Assembly (NCBI RefSeq): GCF_057098645.1 | Contig: NZ_CM169472.1 | Direction: 5' to 3' (one strand) | DNA: 64,000 nt | Shown: in pieces, positions 7,893-52,344 of the stretch | Layout of the letters: the number at the start of each line of letters is the position of its first letter | How positions within the stretch are numbered: position 1 is the stretch's first letter | Translations under genes and position numbers: made by a program | The notes under the pieces: generated by a model | Told to the model about the DNA's origin: nothing | What the model saw: only the letters and a program-made list of their open reading frames with translations | The model's database searches: none

Positions 7893-8127
7893 GATCGCTC
7901 CATATTTTTAAGAACAGGTTATCCACAGAAATTGGGAAAGGCGTTTTCCGGTTTTTTCGTTTCGTTTTCCGGTGCTTTCCGCAATCGCCATCCGCTTATC
8001 CACAACGCCGCACCTTTTTCGTGGGGAGCTGTAGTAGCAATTATAGTCGATTAATACAACATATTGGGTTGGGATGCATTTTAAAGTCTATATATAGTGC
8101 TTTGCATCAAGGATGTTTGAACTTTTT

Positions 8128-35252: not shown

Positions 35253-36578
35253 CTACCTCTTTCCCTTTCGCGGGGGATTATTTTGCTGCTCGGTACTGGC
35301 CTGAAAGCCTTTTTGCAACATCTCATAGGCGGATTCCCGGTCCACGTCATCCTCGTACTTGCCATACACCGGAGAGTGATTAATCAAGCCATTGCGCTCA
35401 TCTTCCGTCACCGGTCCCATCCGCGAACAAGGCGCAATCACCATCGCCCGTTCCACCACAGAAGGACTTCCTTTTGCATCGAGAAACGAGATCAACGCTT
35501 CGCCCGTCCCCAGTTCCTGGATTGCCTTTTCGGTATCAAACGCCGGATTAGCCCGCATGGTTTGCGCCGCTGCCTTCACTGCTTTCTGATCTTTTGGCGT
35601 AAAAGCCCGCAAAGCGTGCTGAACGCGATTACCGAGCTGGCCGAGCACATTATCTGGAATATCAGACGGGTTTTGCGAAACGAACCAGACGCCCACGCCT
35701 TTTGAGCGAATAAGCCTTATCACCTGCTCAATCTTATCCAGCAGTACCTGCGGTGCATCGTTAAACAGCAGATGTGCTTCGTCGAAGAAAAACACCAGTT
35801 TTGGCTTCTCCAGATCGCCCGCTTCCGGCAATTGTTCATACAACTCTGAAATCATCCACAGCAGGCTGGCGGCGTACAGTTTCGGCATCTGATAAAGCTT
35901 CTCGGCGCTGAGGATATTAATAACGCCTTTACCGTTGGCATCGGTGCGCATCCAGTCTTTGATATCCAGCATCGGCTCACCAAAGAAGTGTGCTGCGCCT
36001 TGCTGTTCCAGCGACAACAGCCCGCGCTGGATGGCACCAACCGATGCGCTACTGATATTACCGTACTGATTCTGGAAAGATTTGGCGTTATCGCCGATGT
36101 ACTGGGTAATTGCCCGTAGATCTTTAAAGTCGAGCAGTAACAGCCCCTGATCGTCAGCAATGCGGAAAATGATATTCAGCACGCCAGATTGCACATCGTT
36201 GAGATTCAACAGCCGCGCCAGCAACAGCGGCCCCAGATCCGAAACCGTCGCCCGCACCGGGTGGCCTTTCTCGCCAAAGATATCCCACACCACCACCGGA
36301 TTGGCATGCGGTTGCCAGTCATTGACGCCGATATTTTTAAGCCTTGTGAGCAGTTTTTCCGACGCCGTTCCTGCCTGCGCGATACCGGTCAGATCGCCTT
36401 TCACATCAGCCATAAACACCGGAACACCGATTTCCGATAGAGACTCCGCCAGTTTTTGCAGCGTGACAGTTTTACCCGTCCCCGTTGCGCCAGTAATCAG
36501 CCCGTGACGGTTAGCCATTCCCGGCAGTAAAAATAGTTCTGTGTCCGGCGTGCGGGCAATTAACAGGGGTTCGCTCAT
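35253..36578 (-). CDS. yjgR: DUF853 P-loop NTPase YjgR, apparently frameshifted near the 3' end (C-terminal 58 codons continue in another frame to 35077)
   Basis: Walker A GATGTGKT; start assumed at [10 protein letters not shown]; the region 35077-35252 encodes a plausible C-terminus ...[12 protein letters not shown] in a different frame. Confidence 0.75.
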
Positions 36579-36707
36579 GAGATTTCCTCCAGTTTCCTGC
36601 CTGGAGTATAGGCAACGGCTGCGCACTCTTCACCGCTAAATTCAGCAGATTGCGAGACGCCTTCCAAAGAGATTTAAGTGCCGGGCGACAGGCACCCGGC
36701 AAAGGGA

Positions 36708-37922: not shown

Positions 37923-38007
37923 GCCGAAGTGGCGAAATCGGTAGACGCAGTTGATTCAAAATCAACCGTAGAAATACGTGCCGGTTCGAGTCCGGCCTTC
38001 GGCACCA
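37923..38007 (+). tRNA. leuX: tRNA-Leu (anticodon CAA)
   Basis: 85-nt sequence GCCGAAGTGGCGAAATCGGTAGACGCAGTTGATTCAAAATCAACCGTAGAAATACGTGCCGGTTCGAGTCCGGCCTTCGGCACCA with long variable arm. Confidence 0.95.
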
Positions 38008-38171
38008 TTATTACTTCCAAGTCCATCCGAGTAAGTCCGATTATCCATTAAAAATCAATACTTTCAGCGATTTCTACGATCTTGGATCGTCCGAGGTTGT
38101 CCGTTGAAATCCGGATGTCATTGGGGGCATAATTGGGGGCATCTTAACTTCGATTAGAAATGTGCCCCCAA

Positions 38172-39446
38172 ATGAAGCTCAATGCTAGACAAGTCGAGAC
38201 AGCAAAGCCAAAAGACAAAAGCTACAAAATGGCCGATGGCGGCGGTTTGTATCTCGAGGTTTCGGCCAAGGGGTCTAAATACTGGCGCATGAAATACCGA
38301 CGCCCCTCTGACAAAAAAGAGGATCGCCTCGCTTTTGGTGTTTGGCCGACCGTGACGCTTGCTGAAGCTAGAACGAGGAGGGATGAAGCGAAAAAGTTGC
38401 TGGCGCAAGGTATAGATCCAAAAGCAGTACAGAAAGAGGCTCAAGCAGAGAATGCTGGTGCTTATAATTTTGAAACTATTGCTCGTGAATGGCACGCCAG
38501 CAACAAACGTTGGAGTGAGGATCATCGGGCGCGTGTTCTTCGCTATCTAGAGCTGTATATCTTTCCTTATATTGGCTTGTCTGATATCCGACAGCTTAAA
38601 ACTAGCCATCTTTTAGCACCGATAAAAAAAGTTGATGCCAGTGGTAAGCATGATGTGGCGCAGCGTCTTCAGCAACGTGTTACTGCTATTATGCGCTATG
38701 CCGTACAGAACGATTATATAGATTCAAATCCTGCAAGTGATATGGCTGGTGCGTTATCGACAGCTAAAACGCGGCACTATCCAGCTCTACCATCACATCG
38801 TTTTCCTGAGTTCTTAGCACGTCTTGCTGCATATCGTGGTCGTATGATGACGAAAATTGCGGTTGAACTTTCTTTATTAACATTTGTTCGTTCCAGTGAG
38901 CTACGTTTCGCTCGCTGGGATGAATTCGACTTCGATAAATCTCTATGGCGTATACCTGCAAAACGCGAGGAAATTAAAGGCGTACGTTACTCATATAGAG
39001 GAATGAAGATGAAGGAAGAGCATCTCGTTCCACTTAGTAGGCAAGCGATAGGGTTGTTGGAGCAGTTAAAGCAGATTAGTGGTGATAAGACGCTGCTTTT
39101 CCCTGGGGATCATGACGCAACTAAGGTTATGAGTGAGAACACTGTTAATAATGCATTGCGTGCGATGGGCTATGATACGAAAACAGAAGTTTGCGGACAT
39201 GGTTTTAGGACAATGGCACGTGGTGCGTTAGGAGAGTCAGGATTATGGAGTGATGATGCTATTGAACGCCAATTGAGCCATTCGGAACGTAATAATGTGC
39301 GAGCTGCGTATATTCATACGTCTGAGCATTTAGATGAGCGCAGACTAATGGTCCAATGGTGGGCAGATTATCTTTATTCCAACAGAGAGAAGCATATCTC
39401 TGCTTTTGAATTTGCAAATAAACTTAATAAAAATAGCCTTGATTAA
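38172..39446 (+). CDS. intB: P4-type tyrosine integrase
   Basis: N-terminus MKLNARQVETAKPKDKSYKMADGGGLYLEV... typical of P4-family integrases, directly downstream of tRNA-Leu. Confidence 0.9.
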   Translation: MKLNARQVETAKPKDKSYKMADGGGLYLEVSAKGSKYWRMKYRRPSDKKEDRLAFGVWPTVTLAEARTRRDEAKKLLAQGIDPKAVQKEAQAENAGAYNFETIAREWHASNKRWSEDHRARVLRYLELYIFPYIGLSDIRQLKTSHLLAPIKKVDASGKHDVAQRLQQRVTAIMRYAVQNDYIDSNPASDMAGALSTAKTRHYPALPSHRFPEFLARLAAYRGRMMTKIAVELSLLTFVRSSELRFARWDEFDFDKSLWRIPAKREEIKGVRYSYRGMKMKEEHLVPLSRQAIGLLEQLKQISGDKTLLFPGDHDATKVMSENTVNNALRAMGYDTKTEVCGHGFRTMARGALGESGLWSDDAIERQLSHSERNNVRAAYIHTSEHLDERRLMVQWWADYLYSNREKHISAFEFANKLNKNSLD

Positions 39447-39613
39447 GTCTCCGCTTAGTTTGAACTAGCCTTCATCAACAGCAATGCTTGTGTCTTTTTA
39501 ACCTTCACTTAACAACTTCTTAGGCAATTATTCCATTGCTTTTAAAAACTAAGTATTCCTTAGTAATTTCGAGTGTAAAAAGTGCAAACCTACCTCCAAA
39601 AAGAGGATTTTCG

Positions 39614-39817
39614 ATGCTTCCAATTAGGTTAAAAAAAGCCCGATTGAATGCTGGGTTAACTCAAGAACAGTTGGGAATACTTGTTGGCATTGATGAATGC
39701 TCTGCCAGTGCTCGCATGAATCAATATGAGAAAGGTAAACATATGCCCGATTTTTCACTTACTAAAAAAATCGCTGATTTATTAAATGTCCCTGTCTCAT
39801 ATTTTTACACACCCTAA
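39614..39817 (+). CDS. XRE-family HTH protein, candidate restriction-modification controller (C protein)
   Basis: 67-aa ORF LKKARLNAGLTQEQLGILVGIDECSASARMNQYEKG..., SD aagagga upstream; precedes a putative R gene. Confidence 0.55.
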   Translation: MLPIRLKKARLNAGLTQEQLGILVGIDECSASARMNQYEKGKHMPDFSLTKKIADLLNVPVSYFYTP

Positions 39818-39911
39818 GATGACTTGGCAGAAATTATTTTGTTGATTAATAAACTAGACAAAAAACAGCGGTTAATTTTATTAAAAAATTTATCAGATGG
39901 ATTTATAAGTC

Positions 39912-40730
39912 ATGAATAAGCAAGAAGTTATACTTAAAGTGCAGGAGTGTGCTGCGTGGTGGATTTTGGAGAGACAAAGTAAACTAACAAAGTTAATGTC
40001 AGAAACAATGTCCATAAATCCGTTTATGACCCCTTTTATTTTTGATTATCATTCCCTTAATGATTTTGATGAACTAGTTGAAGCAATAATTGCTAAGCAT
40101 TTAATGACTGGGCATGATACTGGCTTTGGAAAATTGATTGATGAAAAAATACTTCCTAGAGTGTTTGGTGCATATAAATTAGATAAAAGTTATAGAGCTG
40201 CCAACGAGCCTTTTATACACCCTTGCTTTGATGAAATAGATCATGTAATACAAAGGGATGATGGTAGAATTGAGCTTTTATCTCTTAAGGCAGGGAAATG
40301 GACTATTCAATTGACGATGGCTGTCCAACTAAATAAAGCATTTCACGAAATCATAAATAATTATCCTGGAGTGGCTGACAATATAGTGGTTGGGGTTTTT
40401 TATGGAAATAGCCATGGATTAACTGATAAGTATAGAATCTTACGAGGTATCAATACTGGTGCAAACCACAATGTGATTGATATTCGTGACAAAGTGCATG
40501 TATATGCTGGTAAAGAATTTTGGTCATGGCTTAACAATGGTGAGGCTGAAACCCAGCATTGGGTACTTGAAGGTATAGAACGTGCTGTAAAAGAAGCAGA
40601 TATAAAAGAAAAAAATAAAGATCTTATTGAAAAATTCAAAGAACATGTTGCAAAGAAGTACAATGAGCAAGTTCTAAATGCTGATGGCACAGCTCAATGG
40701 CACAAATTACTTGAAATGATTAATGAATAA
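39912..40730 (+). CDS. uncharacterised protein, candidate type II restriction endonuclease (by context)
   Basis: 272-aa AT-rich ORF convergent with a C5-MTase and preceded by a C-protein-like HTH; possible PD-(D/E)xK-like segment DEIDHVIQRDDGRIELLSLK. Confidence 0.4.
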   Translation: MNKQEVILKVQECAAWWILERQSKLTKLMSETMSINPFMTPFIFDYHSLNDFDELVEAIIAKHLMTGHDTGFGKLIDEKILPRVFGAYKLDKSYRAANEPFIHPCFDEIDHVIQRDDGRIELLSLKAGKWTIQLTMAVQLNKAFHEIINNYPGVADNIVVGVFYGNSHGLTDKYRILRGINTGANHNVIDIRDKVHVYAGKEFWSWLNNGEAETQHWVLEGIERAVKEADIKEKNKDLIEKFKEHVAKKYNEQVLNADGTAQWHKLLEMINE

Positions 40731-40767
40731 AAAACTGGCCTAAGGGCCAGTTTTTTTATGACTAATT

Positions 40768-42021
40768 CTAAACTTCTTCTTCAAGGTCGTAGTAAGAAAC
40801 ATCTCCACTATATGCTTGACCATTTTTAAAGAAAGATCTGGTTCTAATATGCGGTCTAATATGGGTTTCTATATAATCTGGAGTTACTAAATCAGCAACC
40901 TTATTTTCTTGTATACGATGAAGAAGTTCCATAGCAGCTTCCCCTGCAACTTTACCTAACCGGACAGGAACTGCGTTACCTATCTGTCTGAATTTTTCTG
41001 TAGTTGTACCTTCAAATTTCCAGTAATCAGGAAACTCTTGTATCGCGGCAGCTTCACCAACAGAAATAGCTCTAAGTTCAGTTGGGTGGCACATACTTGT
41101 TCCCGCATGATTTGGCATTGTTACTACTGTGGGTGAAGGAAACTGGAAAGATAGTTTCCTCCAGTAAGCACTTCTTCCTCCTTTAAGATACCAGCTTTTT
41201 CCCATAGATTCTTTTTGCATTTCTTCTGGCATGCTTCTCCAGTTTCCGCCAGGTGGAACCATTGAAAGATATTTCAGTTTTCTTGGCGAAAAATTCATGA
41301 CTTCTGGATATTTATCAACAAAACCGCTCTCTGGGCCAATTACATCCCCCAGCGTTTTGAATGGCGGAAGATTATCTTCTACTCTATTGCTGAATAAAGG
41401 GGAGGCGAAATTGGCTATCATTCCGAAGCGATTACCAATTAAAATAACACGCTCCCTAATTTGTGGGGCTCCATAGTTGGCAGCATTAACTACAAAGCAA
41501 TCCACATGATAACCTAGTTTATTGAATTCGTTAGCTACCCTTTTTATTAGAGAGCCTTTTTCGAAAGCAGATGCTGCGATTGTGCCTGATAGCTCCTTCT
41601 TTTTAGAAGCTGGAACTATAGACATTGATAATAAACCGCGTACGTTTTCCATTACGAAAACTTTTGGGTTTAATTCTTTAATCATTCGAACGTATTCGAA
41701 AATAAGCTGCCCTCTGGCATCTTCTAGCCCTAACCTATTTCCAAAAACACTAAATGCTTGGCACGGTGGACCGCCAGCAACTAAATCTATTTCTTCTTTA
41801 TCATTCACTCCGGCTAGTGCTAATAATTCAGAGCCAGTGCAGTCAACAATACTACCTTCGAATACAGCAAGATTTGGCTTATTAGTTTTAATTGTTTTTA
41901 GAGCTGCCTTATCTTGTTCAACGCAAGCTACGAGCTCAAAGCCAGCCTCTTCGAGACCTAAGTCTAACCCCATTGCGCCACTAAATAGCGAAATAAACTT
42001 TTTACTAGACAAAATAATCAC
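40768..42021 (-). CDS. DNA (cytosine-5)-methyltransferase
   Basis: 417-aa ORF with motif I FSGAMG, motif IV GGPPCQAFS, motif VI ENV. Confidence 0.85.
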   Translation of the reverse strand: MIILSSKKFISLFSGAMGLDLGLEEAGFELVACVEQDKAALKTIKTNKPNLAVFEGSIVDCTGSELLALAGVNDKEEIDLVAGGPPCQAFSVFGNRLGLEDARGQLIFEYVRMIKELNPKVFVMENVRGLLSMSIVPASKKKELSGTIAASAFEKGSLIKRVANEFNKLGYHVDCFVVNAANYGAPQIRERVILIGNRFGMIANFASPLFSNRVEDNLPPFKTLGDVIGPESGFVDKYPEVMNFSPRKLKYLSMVPPGGNWRSMPEEMQKESMGKSWYLKGGRSAYWRKLSFQFPSPTVVTMPNHAGTSMCHPTELRAISVGEAAAIQEFPDYWKFEGTTTEKFRQIGNAVPVRLGKVAGEAAMELLHRIQENKVADLVTPDYIETHIRPHIRTRSFFKNGQAYSGDVSYYDLEEEV

Positions 42022-42337
42022 CTACATACTTAGCAGCCAAATACTAGGATATTGTAAAGGATTAACACTAATCCTCAACTCAAGTTTCAGGGATCTTAGC
42101 AGAATCTGCTTTGCAAGGATTCTATGAATGTAAATTAATAGATACTGGCGCGCAGTGCTTTCCCCGCCTCGCCCGCCCGCTTTGCAGGGCGGTTTTAATG
42201 CAGTTGCACAGTCACGCTCAGGCTGCGCCGGGAATGGCGCGGTCTGCAGAGAATGAGGCAGGAAAACGCATGCAAAGCCATGCACCTTATCGATGCATGG
42301 CTTTTTTCAGTAAAAACGGGAGGATTTTCGGGGAATT

Positions 42338-42910
42338 TTACACAGACTGACGTGATGCCAGTTGCGCACTTTTACGCGAAAAAATCATGTTCTGCGCAGG
42401 GGTGAATTTTTCACGGCTGTCATCCACCGAAGCCGCGTCAGGCCTGAATCCGATGGTCGTTAAAATGTCGCTATCCTGTGCGGAATAATTAATTTTTTCA
42501 CCCTTCGCAAGCCAGGACAGGAGGGCTTCACGCAGGGCATCTGTGGCACGCTGTATGGCACAGTTTCGGGCAATGGCCGTCAGCTCACTGTAGCCCATCA
42601 GCTCCGGTGCCAGTGCCGCCGCCAGTGCTGTGCCGTGCTGCTGCATAAAATCATTCAGCCGATCGCGGATGCTGATGTGCTGAACGGCTTCATGCGAACG
42701 AATATAACGACCGGCGGCCTGATTCACCTGCCATTTTCTGACTTCGATAATATTGCGTAATTCGTCCAGGCGACTGACGTTTCTGCCTTCTCCTGACAGA
42801 AGCCGCAGATATTCCTGTTCGGCCGCAGCCAGCTCATTTTTGCGTTGCAGCCATGCTGCTTTGTTATTCTGACAGGTGTCAAAGGCCTGCTGTAAGGCTG
42901 TGCTTTCCAT
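42338..42910 (-). CDS. psu: P4-like polarity suppression protein Psu
   Basis: 190-aa ORF at the end of the sid-delta-psu operon, length and position as in P4. Confidence 0.7.
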   Translation of the reverse strand: MESTALQQAFDTCQNNKAAWLQRKNELAAAEQEYLRLLSGEGRNVSRLDELRNIIEVRKWQVNQAAGRYIRSHEAVQHISIRDRLNDFMQQHGTALAAALAPELMGYSELTAIARNCAIQRATDALREALLSWLAKGEKINYSAQDSDILTTIGFRPDAASVDDSREKFTPAQNMIFSRKSAQLASRQSV

Positions 42911-42983
42911 CGTTATCTCTTTCTCATCATGCTGAAGAATAAAAATACGGTGTGCGGCGACGGCCGGGGTTAACCGGCAGCCC

Positions 42984-43484
42984 TCATTCCAGACGCAGCG
43001 AATATGATTGTGTTTTTAACCGTACTGGCGGCAGTTCCTGTTTTTCATGCAGGCTTTCTGCCAGTTCGTCCGGCGTGACCGGGCGGACAATGAAGCGGTT
43101 GATGGTCTGAAGCGTTTTAAACACCAGACCACAGCCCGGATCCGTGCACACATAAAAACGCTCGGTGACTTCCTGAGACAGACGCCGCGATGTTCTTGAC
43201 AGCGCAAGGCCTTTACATCTCCGACAACAATATCCGGTAACAAGCATTCTTTTCGGGCGCTTCATGCTACCGGAGGCTGACGTCAGTGAATCGCGGTATC
43301 TCTGTTTGCCTGAAATGTATTCCATTCCTGAATCTTTACAGTCAGAGAAAAAGCTTTCACTCGCTTCAAATGTCGCAGAGCAATAAATATTCCGGCACTG
43401 TGCAATCATTATCTTGGTGCCATCGTCCATGAAATGTGCGCGACGGGTGTGAGCAACATGTCCACACGACGGGCAGTAAATCAT
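42984..43484 (-). CDS. delta: P4-like Delta late-gene activator (tandem Ogr-type zinc finger)
   Basis: 166-aa ORF with two CxxC...CxxxxC zinc-finger units (CPSCGH...CRNIYC and CCRRC...CTDPGC). Confidence 0.8.
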   Translation of the reverse strand: MIYCPSCGHVAHTRRAHFMDDGTKIMIAQCRNIYCSATFEASESFFSDCKDSGMEYISGKQRYRDSLTSASGSMKRPKRMLVTGYCCRRCKGLALSRTSRRLSQEVTERFYVCTDPGCGLVFKTLQTINRFIVRPVTPDELAESLHEKQELPPVRLKTQSYSLRLE

Positions 43485-44215
43485 GACAGCAGTCCTCTGG
43501 CCTTAAGCACTGCTCCCTGCTGGTCTATTTTGTCCTGCCACACCTTGCGCTGTGCCGGTGTGCCTGCCACCTCATAATCCATGTGCGGGAGTGTTGCCGC
43601 TGACAGTCCGGTCAGCCGGAGAACCGGCTCGCCGGTGAGGCTGATTTGCATCTGTTTTATTTTCTGTTCCAGCGATGATTTCACCTGCTGCATGACAGCT
43701 TTATCGGGTGCGACGTAGCCCTGATGCCCGGTGGTGTTGGCGAGCGGATTTTCCTGTACCAGAATGCTCAGATGCATTGCCCGGACAAGCGCCTCACAGG
43801 TTTCATTCAGGGCGTGTTCCAGCTCATGCTCTGCATACAGACTCAGAAGGTGATGATGTGCCTTCCGGTAGGCGGTGGCCGTGCTGTCACACGCCCCTTT
43901 CAGGCGTTCACGTTCGAAATTCAGCACCACGGCCAGATTGTCATATTCCTGTACCAGCTCCCGGCGTGCCACGCGCTCAATGTGGCGCTGTTTCAGCTCG
44001 TCGCTCAGGACACCACCGGCTGCACGAAAGGCCGTGCGCCAGTCGTCAGCGTCGTTTCCGTCGGCCTGCGCCAGCGCATTTTTTTCCTGCTCTGCCCGTT
44101 CAATGGCCGTGACGGTCTCATCCATCAGTCGGGCGTTCTCAAGGTGGGCGGCTCTGGCCTTTTCCAGTTGTGCCAGTGCGGGTTGCAGATATTCAGGGAT
44201 GGTGTTGTCAGACAT
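43481..44215 (-). CDS. sid: P4-like Sid capsid size determination protein
   Basis: About 244-aa coiled-coil ORF upstream of delta; start assumed at MSDNTIPEYL. Confidence 0.7.
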   Translation of the reverse strand: MSDNTIPEYLQPALAQLEKARAAHLENARLMDETVTAIERAEQEKNALAQADGNDADDWRTAFRAAGGVLSDELKQRHIERVARRELVQEYDNLAVVLNFERERLKGACDSTATAYRKAHHHLLSLYAEHELEHALNETCEALVRAMHLSILVQENPLANTTGHQGYVAPDKAVMQQVKSSLEQKIKQMQISLTGEPVLRLTGLSAATLPHMDYEVAGTPAQRKVWQDKIDQQGAVLKARGLLS

Positions 44216-44287
44216 TTTCCGGCTCCTCGTCACTTCAGGTTAAGAAAATTGTGACGTACACCGGACAACAACACGACGCATTGCAGA

Positions 44288-44305
44288 TGTGCCAGCCCTG
44301 ACACA
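44288..44305 (-). promoter_or_regulatory. TGT-N12-ACA dyad, candidate Ogr/Delta activator site of the sid late promoter
   Basis: tgtgccagccctgacaca about 70-90 bp upstream of the sid start, matching the P2/P4 late promoter activator-site pattern. Confidence 0.45.
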
Positions 44306-44384
44306 GGAGACTCATCCTCAGACCGGCAAGCCAGGAAAAGGTCGCAGGAAAAACCGGCTTACTGTTTGTTTTTTTATATTTTAC

Positions 44385-44478
44385 TGTTCACCTCTGTTCA
44401 CCATAAGAAAAAAGATAAGTAATACAGTAAGTTAAATGGTGAACAATCGCAGTAATGACTGTTCACCGTCTGTTCACC
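44385..44478. repeat. P4 ori-like cluster of TGTTCACC iterons (alpha-binding type I repeats)
   Basis: Five TGTTCACC/GGTGAACA octamers within 95 bp. Confidence 0.6.
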
Positions 44479-44804
44479 CGTTGATGGACTTTTTGTGCTG
44501 TTTACTACTGTTTATTTTTATTAATTCACTGAAATAAATAAGAAAAAACAATTTGTATTTCACTATAATTTTTTCCAGCTCCTTCCAGAGCGTTTTAAAG
44601 CTATCTGGCGCTGATATACAAAAAATGCACAGCCATTGTAAGGCTGCCGGAACAAATCCCCCCTGTTGCGTCTGCCAAAAATATTCACAAAATAAAGCGC
44701 TACCCGAAGCCGGACGGACTTATCCGGTGCTGTATGGACATTAACGAGGTAGCCCGATGCAAGCTGTTTTTTCTTCCCCGTCTCCCGCCCCTGTGACGCC
44801 ACTG

Positions 44805-45023
44805 ATGCCGCTGCCGGACATCACGCAGGAGCGTTTTTTACGTCTGCCGGAAGTGATGCACCTGTGCGGCCTGTCACGCTCGACCATCTATGAACTCATC
44901 CGTAAGGGGGAATTTCCGCCGCAGGTGAGTCTTGGCGGTAAAAATGTGGCCTGGCTGCACTCTGAAGTCACCGCATGGATGGCCGGACGCATTGCCGGAC
45001 GCAAACGGGGGTACGACGCATGA
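44805..45023 (+). CDS. AlpA/Vis-family phage transcriptional regulator
   Basis: [51 protein letters not shown] matches AlpA-type HTH. Confidence 0.75.
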
Positions 45024-45412
45024 TAGTGCCCGCTCTGCAAAAACTCCCTTTTTCTGGCTTGCCTTTTTCCGGCATTTGCGGATATAGTTTTTCCGCTGCC
45101 GCAAAATCGGCAGCCGGGCGTGAGAACCCGTGTAGCTCGAAGGCGACATATGACGCGCCATGCGTCTTTTTTTGTGTCGCAATCAACGCCACAGAGCGCC
45201 AGATTATGGTGTGGCGTGTGGTTTGCCGTGCAGGTATGATCCTGTTCGCAATCGCATGTTATGCCACTGAGTCAATGGTAGCTCAGGCGGGGCAGCCTCC
45301 GGGCTGGCCGGTATTCTTCGAGGCCGGTATTCTCACCCCCGTCTGGGCTATCGCCATCGAGCGTGAGAACTCCGGCGATAGCAGTTATTTGCTACTCGAA
45401 GGAGGCTGCCTT

Positions 45413-45610
45413 ATGGCTACAACCCTTACCCCCTCACACCCTGAATTTGTCTTTGTGTTTGCGGCTGTCCGTCGCGCAGACCGTCATCCCCGTATCTGCA
45501 TGCTTCGCACCGTCGCCGGTGATGAACGCAGCGCCCGCCGTTCCCTTGTCCGTGACTATGTGCTCTCCCTTGCTGCCCGTCTGCCGGTGGTGGAGGTGTC
45601 CCGTGCGTAA
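45413..45610 (+). CDS. small hypothetical protein of the P4-like early region
   Basis: 65-codon ORF with strong SD ggagg 8 nt upstream; the longer listed ORF 44975..45610 is rejected. Confidence 0.35.
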
Positions 45611-45915
45611 TAAAAGCCCCTCAGACCGTCTCAGCGCGTCATGACGCCCGTGAACACCTCAGCATTGAGGCTTACCATAAGCTCAACCGCGCCAGCGCCG
45701 TATCCCGGTTTGTTGCAAAATGGCATCTGAATCGATCGCAGTTTGGCATTCGAATCGATCATGATTTGGCATCCATCTCCGATCACAGTTTGGCATCACA
45801 ATCGATCACGATTTGGCATGCTTCCGATCATTGATTGGCATCCTGCCAGTCACTCCGGGAATTAACTCTTTTCACCACAGTCTCCATTGCCGTGTTTAAA
45901 CCAGTGGAGACGTCA

Positions 45916-47481
45916 ATGTCCAGAAAGAGAAAATCCAGGAGCACTATGGAAACCTGTTTTAAGATCCTTCAGCTCAAGTTCGACAAGAAGCTGACTAACC
46001 GTTGTATCGGACTGACGTTACACATCAGCGCCTCAACCGTTTTTGAGGTTCTTGCCCGCTTCAAAGCCTCTTCTCTGTCATGGCCATTACCTGCTGATAT
46101 ATCCCATGACACGCTGGAGAAACTCATTTTTCCGCCCAAAGACACCTTTGCATCAGAGCTTGTAATGCCTGACATGTTGTACTTCGATACGGAAATGAGA
46201 AAACCAGGTGTGACGCGGCAACTGTTGTGGATGGAATACAAGGCACAGGCGGGTAACAAAGCGATGGGATACTCGCACTTCTGCCGTTGCTACCGGGAGT
46301 GGAAAAAAACGCGACGTCTCTCCATGCGCCAGGAGCATCGTGCCGGCGAAAAGCTTTTTATCGACTTCTGTGGTCCTACGGTTCCTGTTATTAATCCGGA
46401 CACCGGTGAGATACGCCGCGTGGCAATCTTCGTGGCCGTAATGGGGGCGTCCAACTATACCTACGTTGAAGCGTGCGAAGGTCAGGACATGATGTCATGG
46501 TTAAATGCCCACAGCCGTTGCCTGACCTTCCTGGGCGGCGTACCGAAGCTGCTCATCCCCGATAACCTCAGAAGCGCAGTGAAAAAGGCCGATCGATATG
46601 AGCCTGTCATCAACGACAGTTATCAGGCACTGGCTGAGCACTATGGCACGGTTATCATCCCGGCCCGACCACGCAAACCTAAAGATAAACCAAAAGCAGA
46701 AAACGGCGTCCTCATCGTTGAACGATGGCTTCTTGCCCGCATCCGTAATGAAACCTTCCACACGCTCAGGGCGCTGAATGCGCGCCTTAGGGAGTTACTG
46801 ACAGACATGAATAACCGGCCAATGAAGGGGTACGGCAATCAAACCCGTGCAGAACGCTTCCGCATACTGGATGCGCCAGCACTCTCTCCGCTGCCTCTGG
46901 CACCTTATGAATACACGGAATACAAAGCTGTGAAGGTTGGCCCTGACTACCACGTTGAATATGCCCGTCACTGGTACTCCGTTCCACACGAACTGGTCGG
47001 TCAGCGTCTGTCACTGAAGGCGGGGCAGTCGGTGGTACAGCTCTGGCACAAGGGGCAGTGTGTGGCGCAACATCCGCGCAGCACACATGAATATAAACAC
47101 ACAACCAATCCGCTTCACATGCCAGAGCGCCACCGGCAGCACGGGACATGGACACCGGAACGCCTGATCGAGCAGGGAAAACGTACGGGCCCGTCCACAG
47201 GCCGGGTGGTTGAATCCATGCTGAAGGCAAAACCCCATCCGGAACTGGCTTATCGTGCAGTTCTGGGGCTGCTGGCACTTCAGAAAAAATACGGCCCGGA
47301 ACGGCTGGAAAAGGCCTGTTACGTTGCCCTGCACTATAACGCCCCTGACAGACGCTTTATCGACAATCTGCTGCGTCACCATCGGGAGAACCTGGAGCTT
47401 CCATTATCCCGCCAGGGCGAACAACATCCGGCATATGCTTCAGAGCATGAAAACCTGCGTGGTCCGGGCTACTACCACTGA
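45916..47481 (+). CDS. istA: IS21-family transposase IstA
   Basis: About 520-aa ORF with N-terminal HTH and DDE-type core, followed by istB. Confidence 0.75.
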   Translation: MSRKRKSRSTMETCFKILQLKFDKKLTNRCIGLTLHISASTVFEVLARFKASSLSWPLPADISHDTLEKLIFPPKDTFASELVMPDMLYFDTEMRKPGVTRQLLWMEYKAQAGNKAMGYSHFCRCYREWKKTRRLSMRQEHRAGEKLFIDFCGPTVPVINPDTGEIRRVAIFVAVMGASNYTYVEACEGQDMMSWLNAHSRCLTFLGGVPKLLIPDNLRSAVKKADRYEPVINDSYQALAEHYGTVIIPARPRKPKDKPKAENGVLIVERWLLARIRNETFHTLRALNARLRELLTDMNNRPMKGYGNQTRAERFRILDAPALSPLPLAPYEYTEYKAVKVGPDYHVEYARHWYSVPHELVGQRLSLKAGQSVVQLWHKGQCVAQHPRSTHEYKHTTNPLHMPERHRQHGTWTPERLIEQGKRTGPSTGRVVESMLKAKPHPELAYRAVLGLLALQKKYGPERLEKACYVALHYNAPDRRFIDNLLRHHRENLELPLSRQGEQHPAYASEHENLRGPGYYH

Positions 47482-47497
47482 CAGAAGGAACAACAGT

Positions 47498-48253
47498 ATG
47501 AGTGATAACCTGTTAAACAAACTGACCCAACTGAAACTCCCGGCGATGGCCGGGAGCCTGATACGGCAGCGGGAAACGCCTCAGACCTACGACGAACTGT
47601 CGTTCGAGGAAAGGCTGACGCTGCTGGTTGATGACGAGCTTCTGAGCAGGGAAAACAGCCGTGTGGCACGGTTGAGAAAAAATGCCGGCCTGAAATACCA
47701 GGCAACACCGGAAGGGCTGCGCTATCCGGCCTCAAGAGGTCTGCGGGCTGAACAGATGAGAGAACTGCTGAACGGCCACTACATAACCCACAGGAAAAAC
47801 CTGCTGATAACCGGTCCGACAGGATGTGGCAAGAGCTGGATAGCCAATGCGCTGGGCGAACAGGCATGTCGACAGAAACACAGCGTCCGGTACTGTAGAA
47901 CCGGGCGATTACTGGAACAACTGGCTCAGGGACGTGTTGATGGCAGCTGGCTGAAATATCTGAAACAGTTGCAAAAAATACAGGTTCTAATCCTGGACGA
48001 TCTGGGGCTGGAACAGTTAAGTAACGCCCAGTGTAATGACCTTCTGGAGCTCATAGAGGATCGTTACGGACAAAGCAGCACGATAGTGGTAAGCCAGTTC
48101 CCGGTAGATAAATGGCATGGTCTGATGGAGAACCCAACAACAGCAGATGCCATCCTGGACAGACTGGTACATAACTCACACCGAGTGGTCCTTCAGGGAG
48201 AGTCACTGAGGAAAAATCCCCCGGTAGTGGAAAGCAGCGAAAAAACGCGTTAA
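47498..48253 (+). CDS. istB: IS21-family ATP-binding helper IstB
   Basis: Walker A GPTGCGKS, Walker B ILDDLG, C-terminal ILDRLVHNSHRVVLQGESLR as in IstB. Confidence 0.8.
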   Translation: MSDNLLNKLTQLKLPAMAGSLIRQRETPQTYDELSFEERLTLLVDDELLSRENSRVARLRKNAGLKYQATPEGLRYPASRGLRAEQMRELLNGHYITHRKNLLITGPTGCGKSWIANALGEQACRQKHSVRYCRTGRLLEQLAQGRVDGSWLKYLKQLQKIQVLILDDLGLEQLSNAQCNDLLELIEDRYGQSSTIVVSQFPVDKWHGLMENPTTADAILDRLVHNSHRVVLQGESLRKNPPVVESSEKTR

Positions 48254-48525
48254 AAAGCGGTAGAAAAAGTTAAGTTCCCGGTTGATCGAATGGATGCGAA
48301 TCGCTGATCGGACTTCGATGCCAATCCGTGATCGAATAGAGCGGAATACGCAGTTTGTTGGGGGTGATTTGATTCACCGTGAACTCTCCGGCCTGCATCA
48401 GCTCTACATTCCGCATATTTTCAGTTACCTGAATGAAGATATTGATTTTGTGCTGAATGAACTGAAAGCCAAAGGCCTGTGCCGCGATTTTCTCGCCCAG
48501 CAGAAAGACCGGGGAGACAGGACGC

Positions 48526-48981
48526 ATGTTTGATTTTCCCCAGCCCGGTGAGATTTACCGTTCTGCCGGTTTTCCCGATGTGGCCGTGGTCGGCATTCTG
48601 GAAGACGGTATTCCGTGGGAAATGCCGTACCGCTGCCCGGACATTGTCTGGAACCCGTACCGCCGTAAATTCAGTATCCTTGTGCGTATCCTCGCTGACG
48701 GGCGCACCACAGACATCCCGCTGGGGCGTTTTCTGCGGGAATTTACCTGTGACCGTCCTGACCTGTTTAAACGCAGCCCCGTAAACCGGCATGCGGTACT
48801 GAAAGAAATGGCCGGAGACCCGGAATTACAGAAATGGCGGGAGAAATATCTGGATATTTACCCGCAGGACCCTGTTCCGGTCAGCCGGGCGGCACCGGTG
48901 GCGCGGGAATGGCGGGAAATTCCCCGCACGGAGCCTGACCCGGAAATCACCCCGGATAACAGTTACCGCAATTATCTGTAA
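48526..48981 (+). CDS. P4-like early-region protein (orf151 equivalent)
   Basis: 151-aa ORF upstream of alpha in the same orientation. Confidence 0.5.
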   Translation: MFDFPQPGEIYRSAGFPDVAVVGILEDGIPWEMPYRCPDIVWNPYRRKFSILVRILADGRTTDIPLGRFLREFTCDRPDLFKRSPVNRHAVLKEMAGDPELQKWREKYLDIYPQDPVPVSRAAPVAREWREIPRTEPDPEITPDNSYRNYL

Positions 48982-49116
48982 TTAAAAAACGACACCCGAA
49001 AAATTAAATGTGCGTATTCGCGCAGGGATACGCACGTCTTCAGGAGACGCAGATATGCCTTATCAGTTAATGCAACCGGCACGGAATGCAGTCATCTGTC
49101 ACAGGGAGGAAAACAA

Positions 49117-49437
49117 ATGAAAACACCCTTACCGCCCGTCTTACGCGCTGCCCTTTACCGTCGCGCTGTCGCCTGTGCCTGGCTGACCGTGTGCGAACGT
49201 CAGCACCGCTACCCGCATCTCACCCTTGAGTCACTGGAAGCGGCCATCGCCGCTGAGCTGGAAGGCTTTTATCTGCGCCAGCACGGTGAGGAAAAAGGGC
49301 GTCAGATAGCCTGTGCCCTGCTGGAAGATTTAATGGAATCCGGCCCCCTGAAGGCCGCGCCGTCGCTGTCCTTTCTCGGGCTGGTTGTGATGGATGAACT
49401 CTGTGCCCGTCACATAAAAGCGCCGGTACTGCACTGA
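49117..49437 (+). CDS. P4-like early-region protein (orf106 equivalent)
   Basis: 106-aa ORF immediately upstream of alpha. Confidence 0.5.
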
Positions 49438-49451
49438 AGGAGAACAACACC

Positions 49452-51785
49452 ATGAAAATGAACGTAACCGCCACCGTCAGCCATGCGCTCGGCCACTGGC
49501 CGCGTATTCTCCCGGCGCTGGGGATTCAGGTGCTGAAAAACCGTCATCAGCCCTGTCCGGTCTGTGGCGGGAGTGACCGCTTCCGTTTTGATGACAGGGA
49601 GGGGCGCGGCACCTGGTACTGCAATCAGTGTGGTGCCGGTGACGGCCTGAAACTGGTTGAAAAGGTGTTTGGTGTCTCCCCGTCCGACGCGGCCGCAAAG
49701 GTGGCTGCCGTGACCGGCAGCCTGCCCCCGGCTGACCCGGCAGTGACGGCTGCCGCCGGTGCTGAAACAGACGCTGCCCGGAAGAACGCCGCCGCACTGG
49801 CACAAACCCTGATGGCGAAAACCCGTCCCGGAACCGGTAACGCCTACCTGACCCGCAAGGGCTTTCCCGGCCGGGAATGCCGGATGCTGACCGGCACACA
49901 CAGATCCGGTGGCGTGAGCTGGCGTGCCGGTGACCTTGTGGTGCCACTGTATGACGACAGCGGCGAACTGGTTAACCTTCAGTTAATCAGTGCTGACGGC
50001 CGTAAGCGCACCCTGAAAGGCGGACAGGTCAGGGGCACCTGTCACACCCTTGAAGGACAGAATCAGGCCGGAAAACGTCTGTGGATAGCGGAGGGATACG
50101 CGACCGCACTTACCGTACATCACCTGACCGGTGAAACGGTGATGGTGGCGCTTTCTTCCGTGAACCTCCTTTCTCTGGCCAGCCTTGCCCGGCAGAAGCA
50201 TCCGGCCTGTCAGATTGTCCTTGCCGCAGACCGTGACCTCAGCGGTGACGGCCAGAAAAAAGCCGCCGCAGCCGCAGATGCGTGTGAGGGCGTTGTTGCC
50301 CTGCCGCCGGTCTTCGGTGACTGGAATGATGCCTTCACGCAGTACGGCGGGGAGGCCACCCGTAAGGCCATTTACGATGCCATCCGGCCACCGGCTGAAA
50401 GCCCGTTCGACACCATGAGCGAAGCAGAGTTTTCCGCCATGAGTACCAGCGAAAAGGCCATGCGTATCTATGAGCATTACGGCGAGGCGCTCGCGGTTGA
50501 TGCCAACGGCCAGCTTCTGTCCCGTTATGAAAATGGTGTCTGGAAGGTGCTGCCGCCACAGGACTTTGCCCGGGATGTGGCCGGGCTGTTTCAGCGTCTG
50601 CGCGCGCCGTTCTCCTCCGGGAAGGTGGCCTCCGTGGTGGACACCCTGAAGCTGATTATTCCGCAGCAGGAAGCCCCCTCCCGCCGCCTGATTGGCTTTC
50701 GTAACGGCGTGCTCGACACGCAGAACGGCACGTTCCACCCGCACAGTCCGTCACACTGGATGCGCACCCTGTGCGATGTGGATTTCACCCCGCCGGTGGA
50801 CGGTGAAACGCTGGAGACCCACGCCCCCGCGTTCTGGCGCTGGCTTGACCGTGCCGCCGGTGGCCGTGCGGAAAAACGCGACGTGATTCTGGCCGCACTG
50901 TTTATGGTGCTGGCAAACCGCTATGACTGGCAGCTCTTTCTGGAGGTGACCGGTCCCGGCGGCAGCGGCAAAAGTATCATGGCCGAAATAGCCACCCTGC
51001 TGGCCGGTGAGGATAACGCCACGTCGGCCACTATTGAGACGCTGGAATCCCCGCGTGAACGTGCCGCGTTAACTGGCTTCTCACTGATACGCCTGCCGGA
51101 CCAGGAAAAATGGAGCGGCGACGGTGCCGGACTCAAGGCCATCACCGGCGGCGATGCGGTGTCCGTGGACCCGAAATACCGGGATGCGTACTCCACGCAT
51201 ATCCCGGCGGTGATTCTGGCCGTGAACAATAACCCGATGCGCTTCACCGACCGCAGCGGCGGCGTGTCACGCCGGCGGGTGATTATTCACTTCCCGGAAC
51301 AGATAGCCCCGCAGGAGCGCGACCCGCAACTTAAGGACAAAATCACCCGCGAGCTGGCGGTCATCGTGCGTCACCTGATGCAGAAGTTCAGCGACCCGAT
51401 GCTCGCCCGGTCACTGCTTCAGTCCCAGCAGAACTCAGACGAGGCACTGAACATCAAACGGGATGCCGACCCGACGTTTGATTTTATCGGCTATCTGGAA
51501 ACCCTGCCGCAGACCAGCGGCATGTATATGGGGAACGCCAGTATCATCCCGCGTAATTACCGTAAATACCTCTATCACGCCTATCTGGCCTACATGGAGG
51601 CAAACGGCTACCGGAATGTACTCAGTCTGAAAATGTTCGGGCTGGGGCTGCCGGTGATGCTGAAGGAATACGGGCTGAATTACGAGAAGCGCCATACCAA
51701 ACAGGGGATACAGACCAACCTGACGCTGAAAGAGGAAAGCTACGGCGACTGGCTGCCAAAATGTGACGACCCTGCAACAACCTGA
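49452..51785 (+). CDS. alpha: P4-like alpha primase-helicase
   Basis: 777-aa ORF with N-terminal zinc-binding primase motif (CPVCGG...CNQCG), Walker A GPGGSGKS, P4 position. Confidence 0.85.
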   Translation: MKMNVTATVSHALGHWPRILPALGIQVLKNRHQPCPVCGGSDRFRFDDREGRGTWYCNQCGAGDGLKLVEKVFGVSPSDAAAKVAAVTGSLPPADPAVTAAAGAETDAARKNAAALAQTLMAKTRPGTGNAYLTRKGFPGRECRMLTGTHRSGGVSWRAGDLVVPLYDDSGELVNLQLISADGRKRTLKGGQVRGTCHTLEGQNQAGKRLWIAEGYATALTVHHLTGETVMVALSSVNLLSLASLARQKHPACQIVLAADRDLSGDGQKKAAAAADACEGVVALPPVFGDWNDAFTQYGGEATRKAIYDAIRPPAESPFDTMSEAEFSAMSTSEKAMRIYEHYGEALAVDANGQLLSRYENGVWKVLPPQDFARDVAGLFQRLRAPFSSGKVASVVDTLKLIIPQQEAPSRRLIGFRNGVLDTQNGTFHPHSPSHWMRTLCDVDFTPPVDGETLETHAPAFWRWLDRAAGGRAEKRDVILAALFMVLANRYDWQLFLEVTGPGGSGKSIMAEIATLLAGEDNATSATIETLESPRERAALTGFSLIRLPDQEKWSGDGAGLKAITGGDAVSVDPKYRDAYSTHIPAVILAVNNNPMRFTDRSGGVSRRRVIIHFPEQIAPQERDPQLKDKITRELAVIVRHLMQKFSDPMLARSLLQSQQNSDEALNIKRDADPTFDFIGYLETLPQTSGMYMGNASIIPRNYRKYLYHAYLAYMEANGYRNVLSLKMFGLGLPVMLKEYGLNYEKRHTKQGIQTNLTLKEESYGDWLPKCDDPATT

Positions 51786-51792
51786 CCCACCT

Positions 51793-51818
51793 GACCGGCA
51801 TCTGCCGGTCTTTTTTTA
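51793..51818 (+). terminator. intrinsic terminator downstream of alpha
   Basis: ccggcatctgccgg hairpin followed by a T7 run. Confidence 0.6.
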
Positions 51819-51825
51819 TCCCGAC

Positions 51826-52115
51826 ATCCCCCGAAGGTGAACAATCCACTGTTCACCCTTCACCGTATATTCACCCGTTATCACACTGAAATTAAAAGAG
51901 AAAAACGAAAGGTGAACAGTGTGAACAATCAAATCAAAAAAAACTTTTTTCTCCCTGCGTGATTTTCAGTGCAGGGGACTAATCGCCGGTATGAGTCACA
52001 CCGGCAGAATACCGGAGGTGAAGAATCGAATGTTCACCCTTCACCCATTATTCACCACCTATCATACTGAAATAAAAGGAGAAAAAAGAAAGGTGAACAG
52101 TGTGAACAGTTCTTT
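51826..52115. repeat. crr-like cis replication region: two direct repeats of about 105 bp, each carrying TGTTCACC/GGTGAACA iterons
   Basis: Copies at about 51831-51935 and 52005-52110, near-identical. Confidence 0.65.
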
Positions 52116-52320
52116 CGAAAAAAAATTTTTTATGTGGATAAAAGATGCACTGGTTTGGATCCGAGCTACGGATCCAAACTTACTGATTAAAAATGATTTA
52201 ACTTTCCGATTTATTGATGGGCTGAAAATAGATTGGTCAGAAAAACAGTGGGGGCACAAAAGGGGGCATATTTCATTGTTGTGTTTTATTATTTGTTTTT
52301 TATCATTAACTTATTTTGAT

Positions 52321-52344
52321 GTTTGAGTCCGGCCTTCGCACCAC
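52321..52344 (+). repeat. degenerate direct repeat of the tRNA-Leu 3' end (attR-like island boundary)
   Basis: gtttgagtccggccttcgcaccac versus tRNA 3' end gttcgagtccggccttcggcacca. Confidence 0.55.

Follow-up and report, generated by a model that had tools for sequence, protein, structure and literature searches.

The three genes between the integrase and psu of a P4-like satellite in the window (the whole 64,000-nt stretch of DNA that was analyzed) are those of the EcoO109I type IIP restriction-modification (R-M) system. We put the probability at roughly 60% that the system is methylation-proficient here, with restriction lost or strongly reduced. A nonsense substitution in the controller gene shortens the C protein from 101 to 67 aa, and full-length C.EcoO109I is absent. 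The original prediction had placed three genes between a P4-type integrase and psu: one for an HTH protein, one for a 272-aa protein and, convergent to them, one for a C5-methyltransferase. All three are present, with coordinates slightly corrected (Table 1), and they match three PADLOC type II RM models, Control_protein, REase_II and MTase_II.

Table 1. Features of the EcoO109I locus and its satellite surroundings (window coordinates)
Feature	Position	Strand	Basis or remark
tRNA-Leu(CAA) (leuX)	37923..38007	+	ARAGORN; integration target of the P4-like element
attL core GTTCGAGTCCGGCCTTCG	37984-38001		18-nt direct repeat; attR copy at 52321-52338
P4-type tyrosine integrase	38160..39446	+	ORF listing; RefSeq-equivalent start 38172 gives 424 aa
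Imperfect upstream C-box half-operator, candidate, TTAAC-N5-CTTAG	39509..39523	.	2 mismatches; perfect box follows 25 nt downstream
Perfect C-box ACTAAG-TATTC-CTTAGT, operator of C.EcoO109I	39548..39564	.	Pattern scan and published consensus
ecoO109IC controller, truncated allele, 67 aa	39614..39817	+	Ancestral 101-aa ORF 39614-39919
G to T nonsense substitution, GAA (Glu68) to TAA	39815..39815	+	Comparison with complete genomes
ecoO109IR, type IIP endonuclease R.EcoO109I, 272 aa	39912..40730	+	Intact ORF
Bidirectional intrinsic terminator hairpin, predicted	40729..40756	.	Between convergent R and M; stem flanked by A-run and T-run
C5-cytosine DNA methyltransferase, probable M.EcoO109I, 417 aa	40768..42021	-	Intact ORF
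Sigma-70-like promoter candidate for the methyltransferase (TTGAGG-16-TACAAT)	42051..42078	-	Consensus scan; weak
P4/P2 cos 19-mer GGCGAGGCGGGGAAAGCAC	42155..42173	-	Identical to P4 record bases 1-19
psu (polarity suppression / capsid decoration protein)	42338..42910	-	96% DNA identity to P4

The host element has the hallmarks of a P4-like satellite: int, cos, psu, delta, sid, an alpha primase, crr repeats (120 nt) and an att duplication (18 nt) at a tRNA gene. Three blocks match phage P4 at 95–98% DNA identity, while the int region matches at 83% over 37984-39371, P4 attP-region homology beginning at 37984. In identical loci of other genomes, int is annotated as a tyrosine-type recombinase/integrase and psu as a phage polarity suppression protein. 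Homology on the int side ends at P4 2715 and returns at the cos 19-mer, which forms the right edge of the variable cargo, P4 homology restarting at 42174; a search of the window for sequence homology to P4 bases 20-2714 found none. As predicted, the P4 record holds gop-beta-cII in this slot, from the int 3' end to cos, at P4 coordinates 247-2540; like the other systems of the psu-int interval, these share the location with the trio and differ from it in gene content. The predicted AT-richness was also borne out, GC of the cargo being 0.30-0.41 vs about 0.5 in the flanks. By these homology boundaries, the trio is cargo: it sits in the int-cos/psu hotspot, and the P4-like satellite prophage around it is integrated at leuX. 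The prediction that this interval is a variable hotspot agrees with the literature, in which the psu-int slot is known with more than 300 gene arrangements; EcoO109I is listed among them with a citation of Kita 1999 (Rousset et al. 2022), the year in which its int-psu location in a P4-like prophage was published. An IS21-family insertion is also present in the host satellite.

The 272-aa protein had been described as of unknown fold, possibly a divergent restriction endonuclease. It is an endonuclease, and it is not divergent: a PDB sequence search gave 272/272 identity to 1wtd/1wte 'EcoO109IR', a PD-(D/E)XK structure (E 1.9e-187), the UniProt entry Q9RPJ3 'EcoO109IR' matched exactly, and the PADLOC REase_II model (PDLC03471) matched at 653.7 bits. 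The crystal structure is reportedly that of Hashimoto et al., 2005. Without a structure database the protein looks unknown, because an NCBIfam search found no family model for it and Pfam gave only a weak match (PF14511, E 2.4e-4); yet a solved structure and a commercial enzyme stand behind it. R.EcoO109I is a PD-(D/E)XK enzyme that cuts RG^GNCCY (PMC7337904), and the same cleavage would be expected of the identical protein encoded here. Both it and AvaII (G^GWCC) have the PD-(D/E)XK core, leave a 3-nt 5' stagger and hold A-like DNA in their complexes, but sequence similarity between the two is weak, and the outer R:Y pairs are read by a W130 wedge that AvaII lacks (PMC7337904). W130 is present in the translation of the 272-aa gene.

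The methyltransferase scored 199.5 bits with TIGR00675 dcm (cut-off 100.65) and 350 bits with PADLOC MTase_II (PDLC03378), and HaeIII and HhaI methyltransferase structures matched it at 1e-31 to 1e-24. The canonical C5-methyltransferase motifs that had been predicted can be read in its translation as FSGAMG, GGPPCQ, ENV, QIRER and GNAVPV (motifs I, IV, VI, VIII and X). Its DNA is identical in the other carriers of the cassette, and from this invariance we infer that it matches the H709c sequence and is M.EcoO109I. A solitary Dcm-like enzyme, which the original prediction had held open, was rejected: NF007772 gave 42.8 bits against a cut-off of 710, and the intact R.EcoO109I ORF adjoins the gene, its stop 37 nt from this convergent partner. 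The predicted terminator hairpin between R and M folds at -17.3 kcal/mol (z = -5.4, with 0 of 200 shuffles as stable); it was revealed by RNA folding after a consensus terminator scan had overlooked it. Sigma-70-like matches in the region, among them the candidate upstream of the methyltransferase gene, were not above shuffled sequence. On the + strand the consensus scan returned no promoter for C or R, and, having missed the C promoter too, it is too insensitive to count against an internal promoter for R.

The small HTH protein was correctly recognized as such, and it is an HTH controller; what the prediction missed is that it is a nonsense truncation of a 101-aa form. The mechanical ORF (39536-39817, 93 aa) opens at a TTG. 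The real start is the ATG at 39614, preceded by AAAGAGGA and in agreement with the RefSeq-annotated start in other genomes. PADLOC Control_protein (PDLC03667) matched at E 3.5e-45 over profile positions 1-67 of 101. Read through the stop, the translation aligns residue for residue to C.Csp231I (3lfp; E 7.7e-33), with YTP*DDLAEII here vs YTPEDDLAQII there, and the 101-aa form is an exact match to UniProt Q9RPJ4 'Eco0109IREP'. The R ATG overlaps the ancestral C stop (ATGAATAA at 39912-39919) and is preceded by a weak GGA only. C and R are co-oriented, and the consensus scan showed no terminator-like site between their starts.

The inverted repeat upstream of the controller gene, predicted to be a C-box, matched the published C.EcoO109I consensus CTAAG-N5-CTTAG, or motif 8 (PMC6765115; PMC4824078), and lies one base to the left of the estimated position. 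Its core CTAAGNNNNNCTTAG, at 39549-39563, is 51 nt upstream of the C ATG and unique in the 64 kb with one mismatch allowed. Chance alone would yield about 1 such match to the core in the window at up to one mismatch, so what gives the box weight is where it lies and that it equals the published operator, rather than the statistics. The EcoO109I operator spacer is given as 7 bp longer than the 18 nt of Csp231I (PMC3115060), and the 25-nt distance of the imperfect candidate half-operator would fit it.

The EcoO109I system of E. coli H709c was described by Kita et al. (1999, J Bacteriol 181:6822; 2002, NAR 30:3558), whose content we take as relayed in PMC9122126, PMC4824078, PMC3115060 and PMC6765115. 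The two loci agree in R (272/272 residues), in the C-box, in C over residues 1-67 and, downstream, in a frame identical to the 101-aa Q9RPJ4. Gene order is alike (C and R forward, M convergent), as is location (the int-psu interval of a P4-like prophage at leuX). They differ in controller codon 68, TAA here and GAA there, and in the IS21-family insertion in the satellite here. Csp231I of Citrobacter sp. RFL231 (C.Csp231I, PDB 3lfp/3lis/4jcx) has a controller of the same motif-8 class that is ~70% identical, with seven helices, the same residue numbering and the same CTAAG-N5-CTTAG half-operators, but its R and M enzymes are different. By contrast with EcoO109I, in which the C and R genes overlap, the operator spacer is 25 nt and R is reported to be C-dependent, Csp231I separates C from R by 152 nt containing two R promoters, and has an operator spacer of 18 nt and R expression independent of C.

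In the intact system, the methyltransferase would be transcribed alone from the opposite strand, and its C5-methylation would protect RGGNCCY. Dimers of C.EcoO109I would bind the CTAAG-N5-CTTAG boxes upstream of their own gene and drive the C-R transcript. Because C drives this transcript, on which the R start overlaps the C stop, the endonuclease would arrive only once C had built up, and would then cut unmethylated incoming DNA at RG^GNCCY. [quoted passage not shown] The most probable state is an R-M system in decay, in which neither the R nor the M reading frame has yet been damaged. Truncation of C, taken together with the reported dependence of R on C, suggests that the locus is probably M+ with R silenced or reduced; C function and R expression are both inferred to be lost. 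If R is silent, the methyltransferase may behave as an orphan. With R and M 100% intact, a sequence sign of relaxed selection is not yet seen.

The strongest alternative, possible at odds well short of even, is that EcoO109I is still fully restriction-proficient here, either because the 67-aa core suffices to occupy the C-box and switch on transcription or because R is translated, by ribosome binding of its own, from a basal or other transcript. The truncated protein retains the five-helix HTH core (helices 1-5), the TQE activation patch and the Ser62/Thr66 inter-subunit contact, and smaller C proteins such as C.AhdI, which consist entirely of the five-helix core, are functional (PMC3115060). 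Independence of R from C has its precedent in Csp231I, and both the R and the M ORF are undamaged, with the same sequence as in other strains. Yet 75% of the dimer interface of C.Csp231I is contributed by residues 67-98, and its five-helix core on its own accounts for just 310 Å2 of buried surface (PMC3115060). For EcoO109I itself, inactivation of the C gene is reported to abolish endonuclease production, and the overlap of C and R leaves no spacer for separate promoters of the Csp231I kind. Translational coupling would also be broken. Some residual DNA-assisted dimerization and activation by the retained HTH core is possible.

Readthrough was also considered. The neighboring leuX is the supP locus. 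Suppression of the stop by this tRNA was rejected: its anticodon is the wild-type CAA, and the stop is ochre.

We found the EcoO109I cassette, at >99.7% identity, in 68 of 5,426 complete E. coli genomes, the three genes forming a fixed cassette throughout. All 68 carriers have G at 39815: a 61-nt probe centered on this position differed from the window by one base in each. Compared with three complete genomes over the C, R and M genes, position 39815 was the sole difference. A lone base apart from every complete carrier might be put down to sequencing or assembly error at a locus that is really wild-type EcoO109I, but this is very improbable. The T allele was found on 14 contigs and in about a dozen independent assemblies, GCA_053268055.1 and GCA_029357705.1 among them; the 67-aa product occurs in several NCBI assemblies, in Logan assemblies of separate sequencing runs and in an ENA assembly. 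Six T-allele loci were compared and were base-for-base identical to the window over 0.9-12.6 kb, and the allele is therefore real and clonal, not an error. One of the contigs returned for the 67-aa protein was a contig-end artefact, not the nonsense allele, and was left out. Scarcely credible at all is the remaining option raised by the original prediction, a non-RM effector of unknown fold beside an orphan Dcm-like methyltransferase: the poor family-model matches of the 272-aa protein would suit it, but its identity to the crystallized R.EcoO109I excludes it, and both the fixed three-gene cassette in 68 genomes and the C-box and controller that accompany the 272-aa gene speak against it.

Returning to a silenced or reduced endonuclease as the preferred reading, we tentatively propose, at somewhat under even odds, that the T allele marks a clonal E. 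coli lineage with a natural controller-null (C E68*), in which R has been silenced safely while methylation goes on, and what is left in the IS21-hit satellite is effectively an orphan RGGNCCY m5C methyltransferase. A selective reason for losing C might lie in toxic cross-talk between C proteins of this class and RacR, the Rac prophage repressor (PMC6765115). A low number of RGGNCCY sites was considered as a mark of selection by EcoO109I and rejected: the depletion is shared by P4 and by a K-12 control region and is therefore mostly general to E. coli. A literature search for RGGNCCY methylome data gave nothing of use.

EcoO109I itself has been published, along with its structure, controller, operator and position in P4-like satellites, and the discovery value of the locus is therefore small. 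The nonsense allele has a modest value of its own, as a natural experiment on the need for the C-terminal helices of motif-8 controllers. It also bears on the question of how toxic R-M systems are rendered harmless without triggering post-segregational killing. Gene presence alone may mislead in such cases; where this locus is counted as active defence in the T-allele lineage, the count may be wrong.

The HTH controller gene (C), the 272-aa gene (R) and the convergent C5-methyltransferase gene (M) together are almost certainly the EcoO109I restriction-modification system, which is already known. The R protein matched the protein deposited as EcoO109IR (PDB 1wtd/1wte) at 272/272 residues (E 1.9e-187) and the PADLOC profile REase_II (PDLC03471) at 653.7 bits; an exact-sequence look-up returned the UniProt name "EcoO109IR" (Q9RPJ3). 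EcoO109I belongs to the PD-(D/E)XK enzymes; it cleaves RG^GNCCY, leaving a 3-nt stagger, and wedges W130 into the DNA (PMC7337904). W130 is kept in the window. This contradicts the original prediction of an unknown fold lacking a nuclease motif. Automated annotation under-describes the R gene: Pfam PF14511 (RE_EcoO109I), named after the enzyme, matches the prototype weakly (E 2.4e-4, 21.3 bits), NCBIfam is without a model for the 272-aa protein, and the RefSeq product at three loci is 244 aa, starting 84 nt downstream of the crystal-structure start. The M protein scored 199.5 bits against the NCBIfam dcm model (cut-off 100.65) and 350 bits against PADLOC MTase_II, matched the HaeIII and HhaI methyltransferase structures, and contains FSGAMG, GGPPCQ, ENV, QIRER and GNAVPV, in keeping with the convergent C5 methyltransferase with canonical motifs originally called. 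The reading of the trio as a restriction-modification system with a C-box holds, but the trio is not new and the fold is not unknown.

Features of the EcoO109I-bearing element and its surroundings
Feature	Coordinates	Strand	Remarks
yjgR ORF	35253-36626	-	HerA-like helicase; left of ahr
tRNA-Leu(CAA)	37923-38007
18-nt direct repeat	37984-38001 and 52321-52338		bounds element of 14.3 kb
P4 block 1	37984-39371		P4 4101-2715; att and int; 83% identity
P4-type integrase	38160-39446		from ORF list and raw sequence
Second C-box, imperfect	39509-39523		TTAAC-N5-CTTAG; 25 nt upstream of C-box
C-box CTAAGTATTCCTTAG	39549-39563		39548-39564 with flanking A and T
C	39614 (ATG) to 39815-39817 (stop)		mechanical start TTG 39536; real start ATG
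R	39912-40730		272 aa
M	40768-42021	-	417 aa; convergent to R
P4 cos 19-mer GGCGAGGCGGGGAAAGCAC	42155-42173
P4 block 2	42174-45715		P4 11624-8061; psu, delta, sid, left operon; 96%
psu	42338-42910		beyond the 417-aa minus-strand ORF
IS21-family element	45716-48352		istA 45835-47481, istB to ~48253
P4 block 3	48353-52343		P4 8068-4078; orf151, orf106, alpha, crr, att; 98%
682-aa ORF, uncharacterised	53021-55069	+	between attR and PT-dependent endonuclease
Defence island	55692-60634		directly right of attR
PT-dependent HNH restriction endonuclease	55692-56720		phosphorothioated-DNA-binding; NF045808, 437.7 bits
ZorE	57104-58207		type II Zorya; above NCBIfam equivalog cut-off
ZorB2	58211-58918		type II Zorya; above NCBIfam equivalog cut-off
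ZorA2	58925-60634		type II Zorya; above NCBIfam equivalog cut-off

Judged by homology in three blocks (megablast against phage records and direct blastn against P4), the element hosting the trio is a P4-like satellite. P4 20-2714 (gop, beta and cII), for which blastn against P4 found no counterpart in the window, is replaced by window 39372-42154, and this cargo is AT-rich (GC 0.30–0.41, versus ~0.5 in the flanks). The trio had been predicted to sit where P4 carries gop-beta-cII, in an interval known to be variable; the first point agrees with the alignment, the second with a survey that describes a hotspot between psu and int in P4-like satellites, with 5,251 loci and >300 gene arrangements (Rousset et al. 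2022, PMC9122126). That survey names EcoO109I (citing Kita et al., 1999) among psu-int systems that "had previously been reported". We found the full cassette in 68 of 5,426 complete E. coli genomes, always chromosomal and often O157:H7, and at all three loci examined it lay between a leuX-adjacent integrase and psu. The 1999 work of Kita et al. reportedly located the EcoO109I genes in a leuX-integrated P4 prophage, in the interval from int to psu.

The IS21-family element is inserted at P4 coordinate 8061-8068, within epsilon, the helper derepression gene, which precedes orf151-orf106-alpha in one operon; the insertion may have crippled the satellite. The 8-bp overlap of the two P4 homology blocks at this site suggests a target-site duplication; the left junction was found in no complete E. 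coli genome of the collection. The defence island beyond attR is AT-rich (GC 0.38). The 682-aa ORF gave no PADLOC or NCBIfam match at E <= 0.001.

The C-box is the sole match to CTAAG-N5-CTTAG in the window, even at one mismatch, and is identical to motif 8, the binding consensus of C.EcoO109I and the homologous controller C.Csp231I (PMC6765115, PMC4824078, PMC2632904). Its original assignment as a possible operator was correct, and the operator is a published one. At 25 nt, the distance between the two boxes agrees with a remark that the 18-nt operator spacer of Csp231I is 7 bp shorter than that of EcoO109I (PMC3115060).

The C gene, whose ATG follows the Shine-Dalgarno sequence AAAGAGGA, is truncated in the window. 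Its product matched PADLOC Control_protein (PDLC03667, E 3.5e-45) over profile positions 1-67 of 101 only; in three carrier loci the gene has 306 nt and specifies 101 aa. Window 39614-39919 translates in frame as ...VSYFYTP*DDLAEIILLINKLDKKQRLILLKNLSDGFISHE*, and C.Csp231I reads YTPEDDLAQIIL at the position of the premature stop. The change, G to T at 39815 (GAA to TAA), is the only C, R or M difference from three complete genomes by ungapped comparison; a 61-nt probe centred on it hit each of the 68 carriers with a single mismatch (98.4%) and was exact in none. The nonsense allele is not an artefact: several NCBI, Logan and ENA assemblies record the 67-aa product, and six of the loci retrieved match the window at every base over 0.9–12.6 kb, so the allele marks a clonal lineage including the window's strain. 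A seventh locus, on contig L006, was discounted, its gene being merely cut by the contig end. Separately, yjgR is 457 aa in the ORF list, with its product called as 441 aa in the window-identical contigs L005, L007 and L008 and 500 aa in the divergent L006; it could be frameshifted or truncated in the window's lineage.

Because C proteins occupy their palindromic boxes as dimers, the truncated C would be expected to hold its operator much more weakly. C.EcoO109I is ~70% identical to C.Csp231I, with the same residue numbering, and in the C.Csp231I crystal 75% of the dimer interface of 1,410 Å2 comes from helices 6 and 7 (residues 67-98), the five-helix core burying only 310 Å2 (PMC3115060). Termination at codon 68 deletes exactly the region equivalent to helices 6 and 7. 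Inactivating the EcoO109I C gene reportedly abolishes endonuclease production. In Csp231I, two R promoters lie in a 152-nt C-R spacer and R expression does not need C; EcoO109I lacks such a spacer, its ancestral C stop codon and R start codon overlapping (ATGAATAA). With the premature stop, translation ends 95 nt short of the R ATG, and only a weak GGA precedes that ATG. M runs convergent to R, with a strong bidirectional hairpin between the two genes (-17.3 kcal/mol, z = -5.4), and a sequence scan gives M a promoter-like site of its own, so methylation should continue unaffected. We infer an M+ state for the window copy, with R lost or strongly reduced (probability 0.6–0.65). The main rival, which we regard as possible, is that the HTH core left after truncation is still active enough.

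C.Csp231I is reported to be toxic through repression of RacR, the repressor of the Rac prophage, and C.Csp231I/EcoO109I-like genes seldom co-occur with racR/ydaS/ydaT (PMC6765115). Such cross-talk is a possible selective reason for a loss of C function; rac lies outside the window.

RGGNCCY occurs twice in the 64-kb window (29630 and 48866); dinucleotide shuffles give 38 ± 6 sites, and a 4th-order Markov model predicts ~10. Depletion is also seen in a K-12 control region (7 sites in 50 kb) and in P4 (0 sites in 11.6 kb), so the rarity mostly reflects E. coli in general, with its rare AGG/GGG/CCY codons and GGNCC avoidance; it is perhaps slightly stronger in the window. So few sites would curb self-toxicity as well as anti-phage power. 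The probable controller-null allele adds a minor but testable point to a known system.
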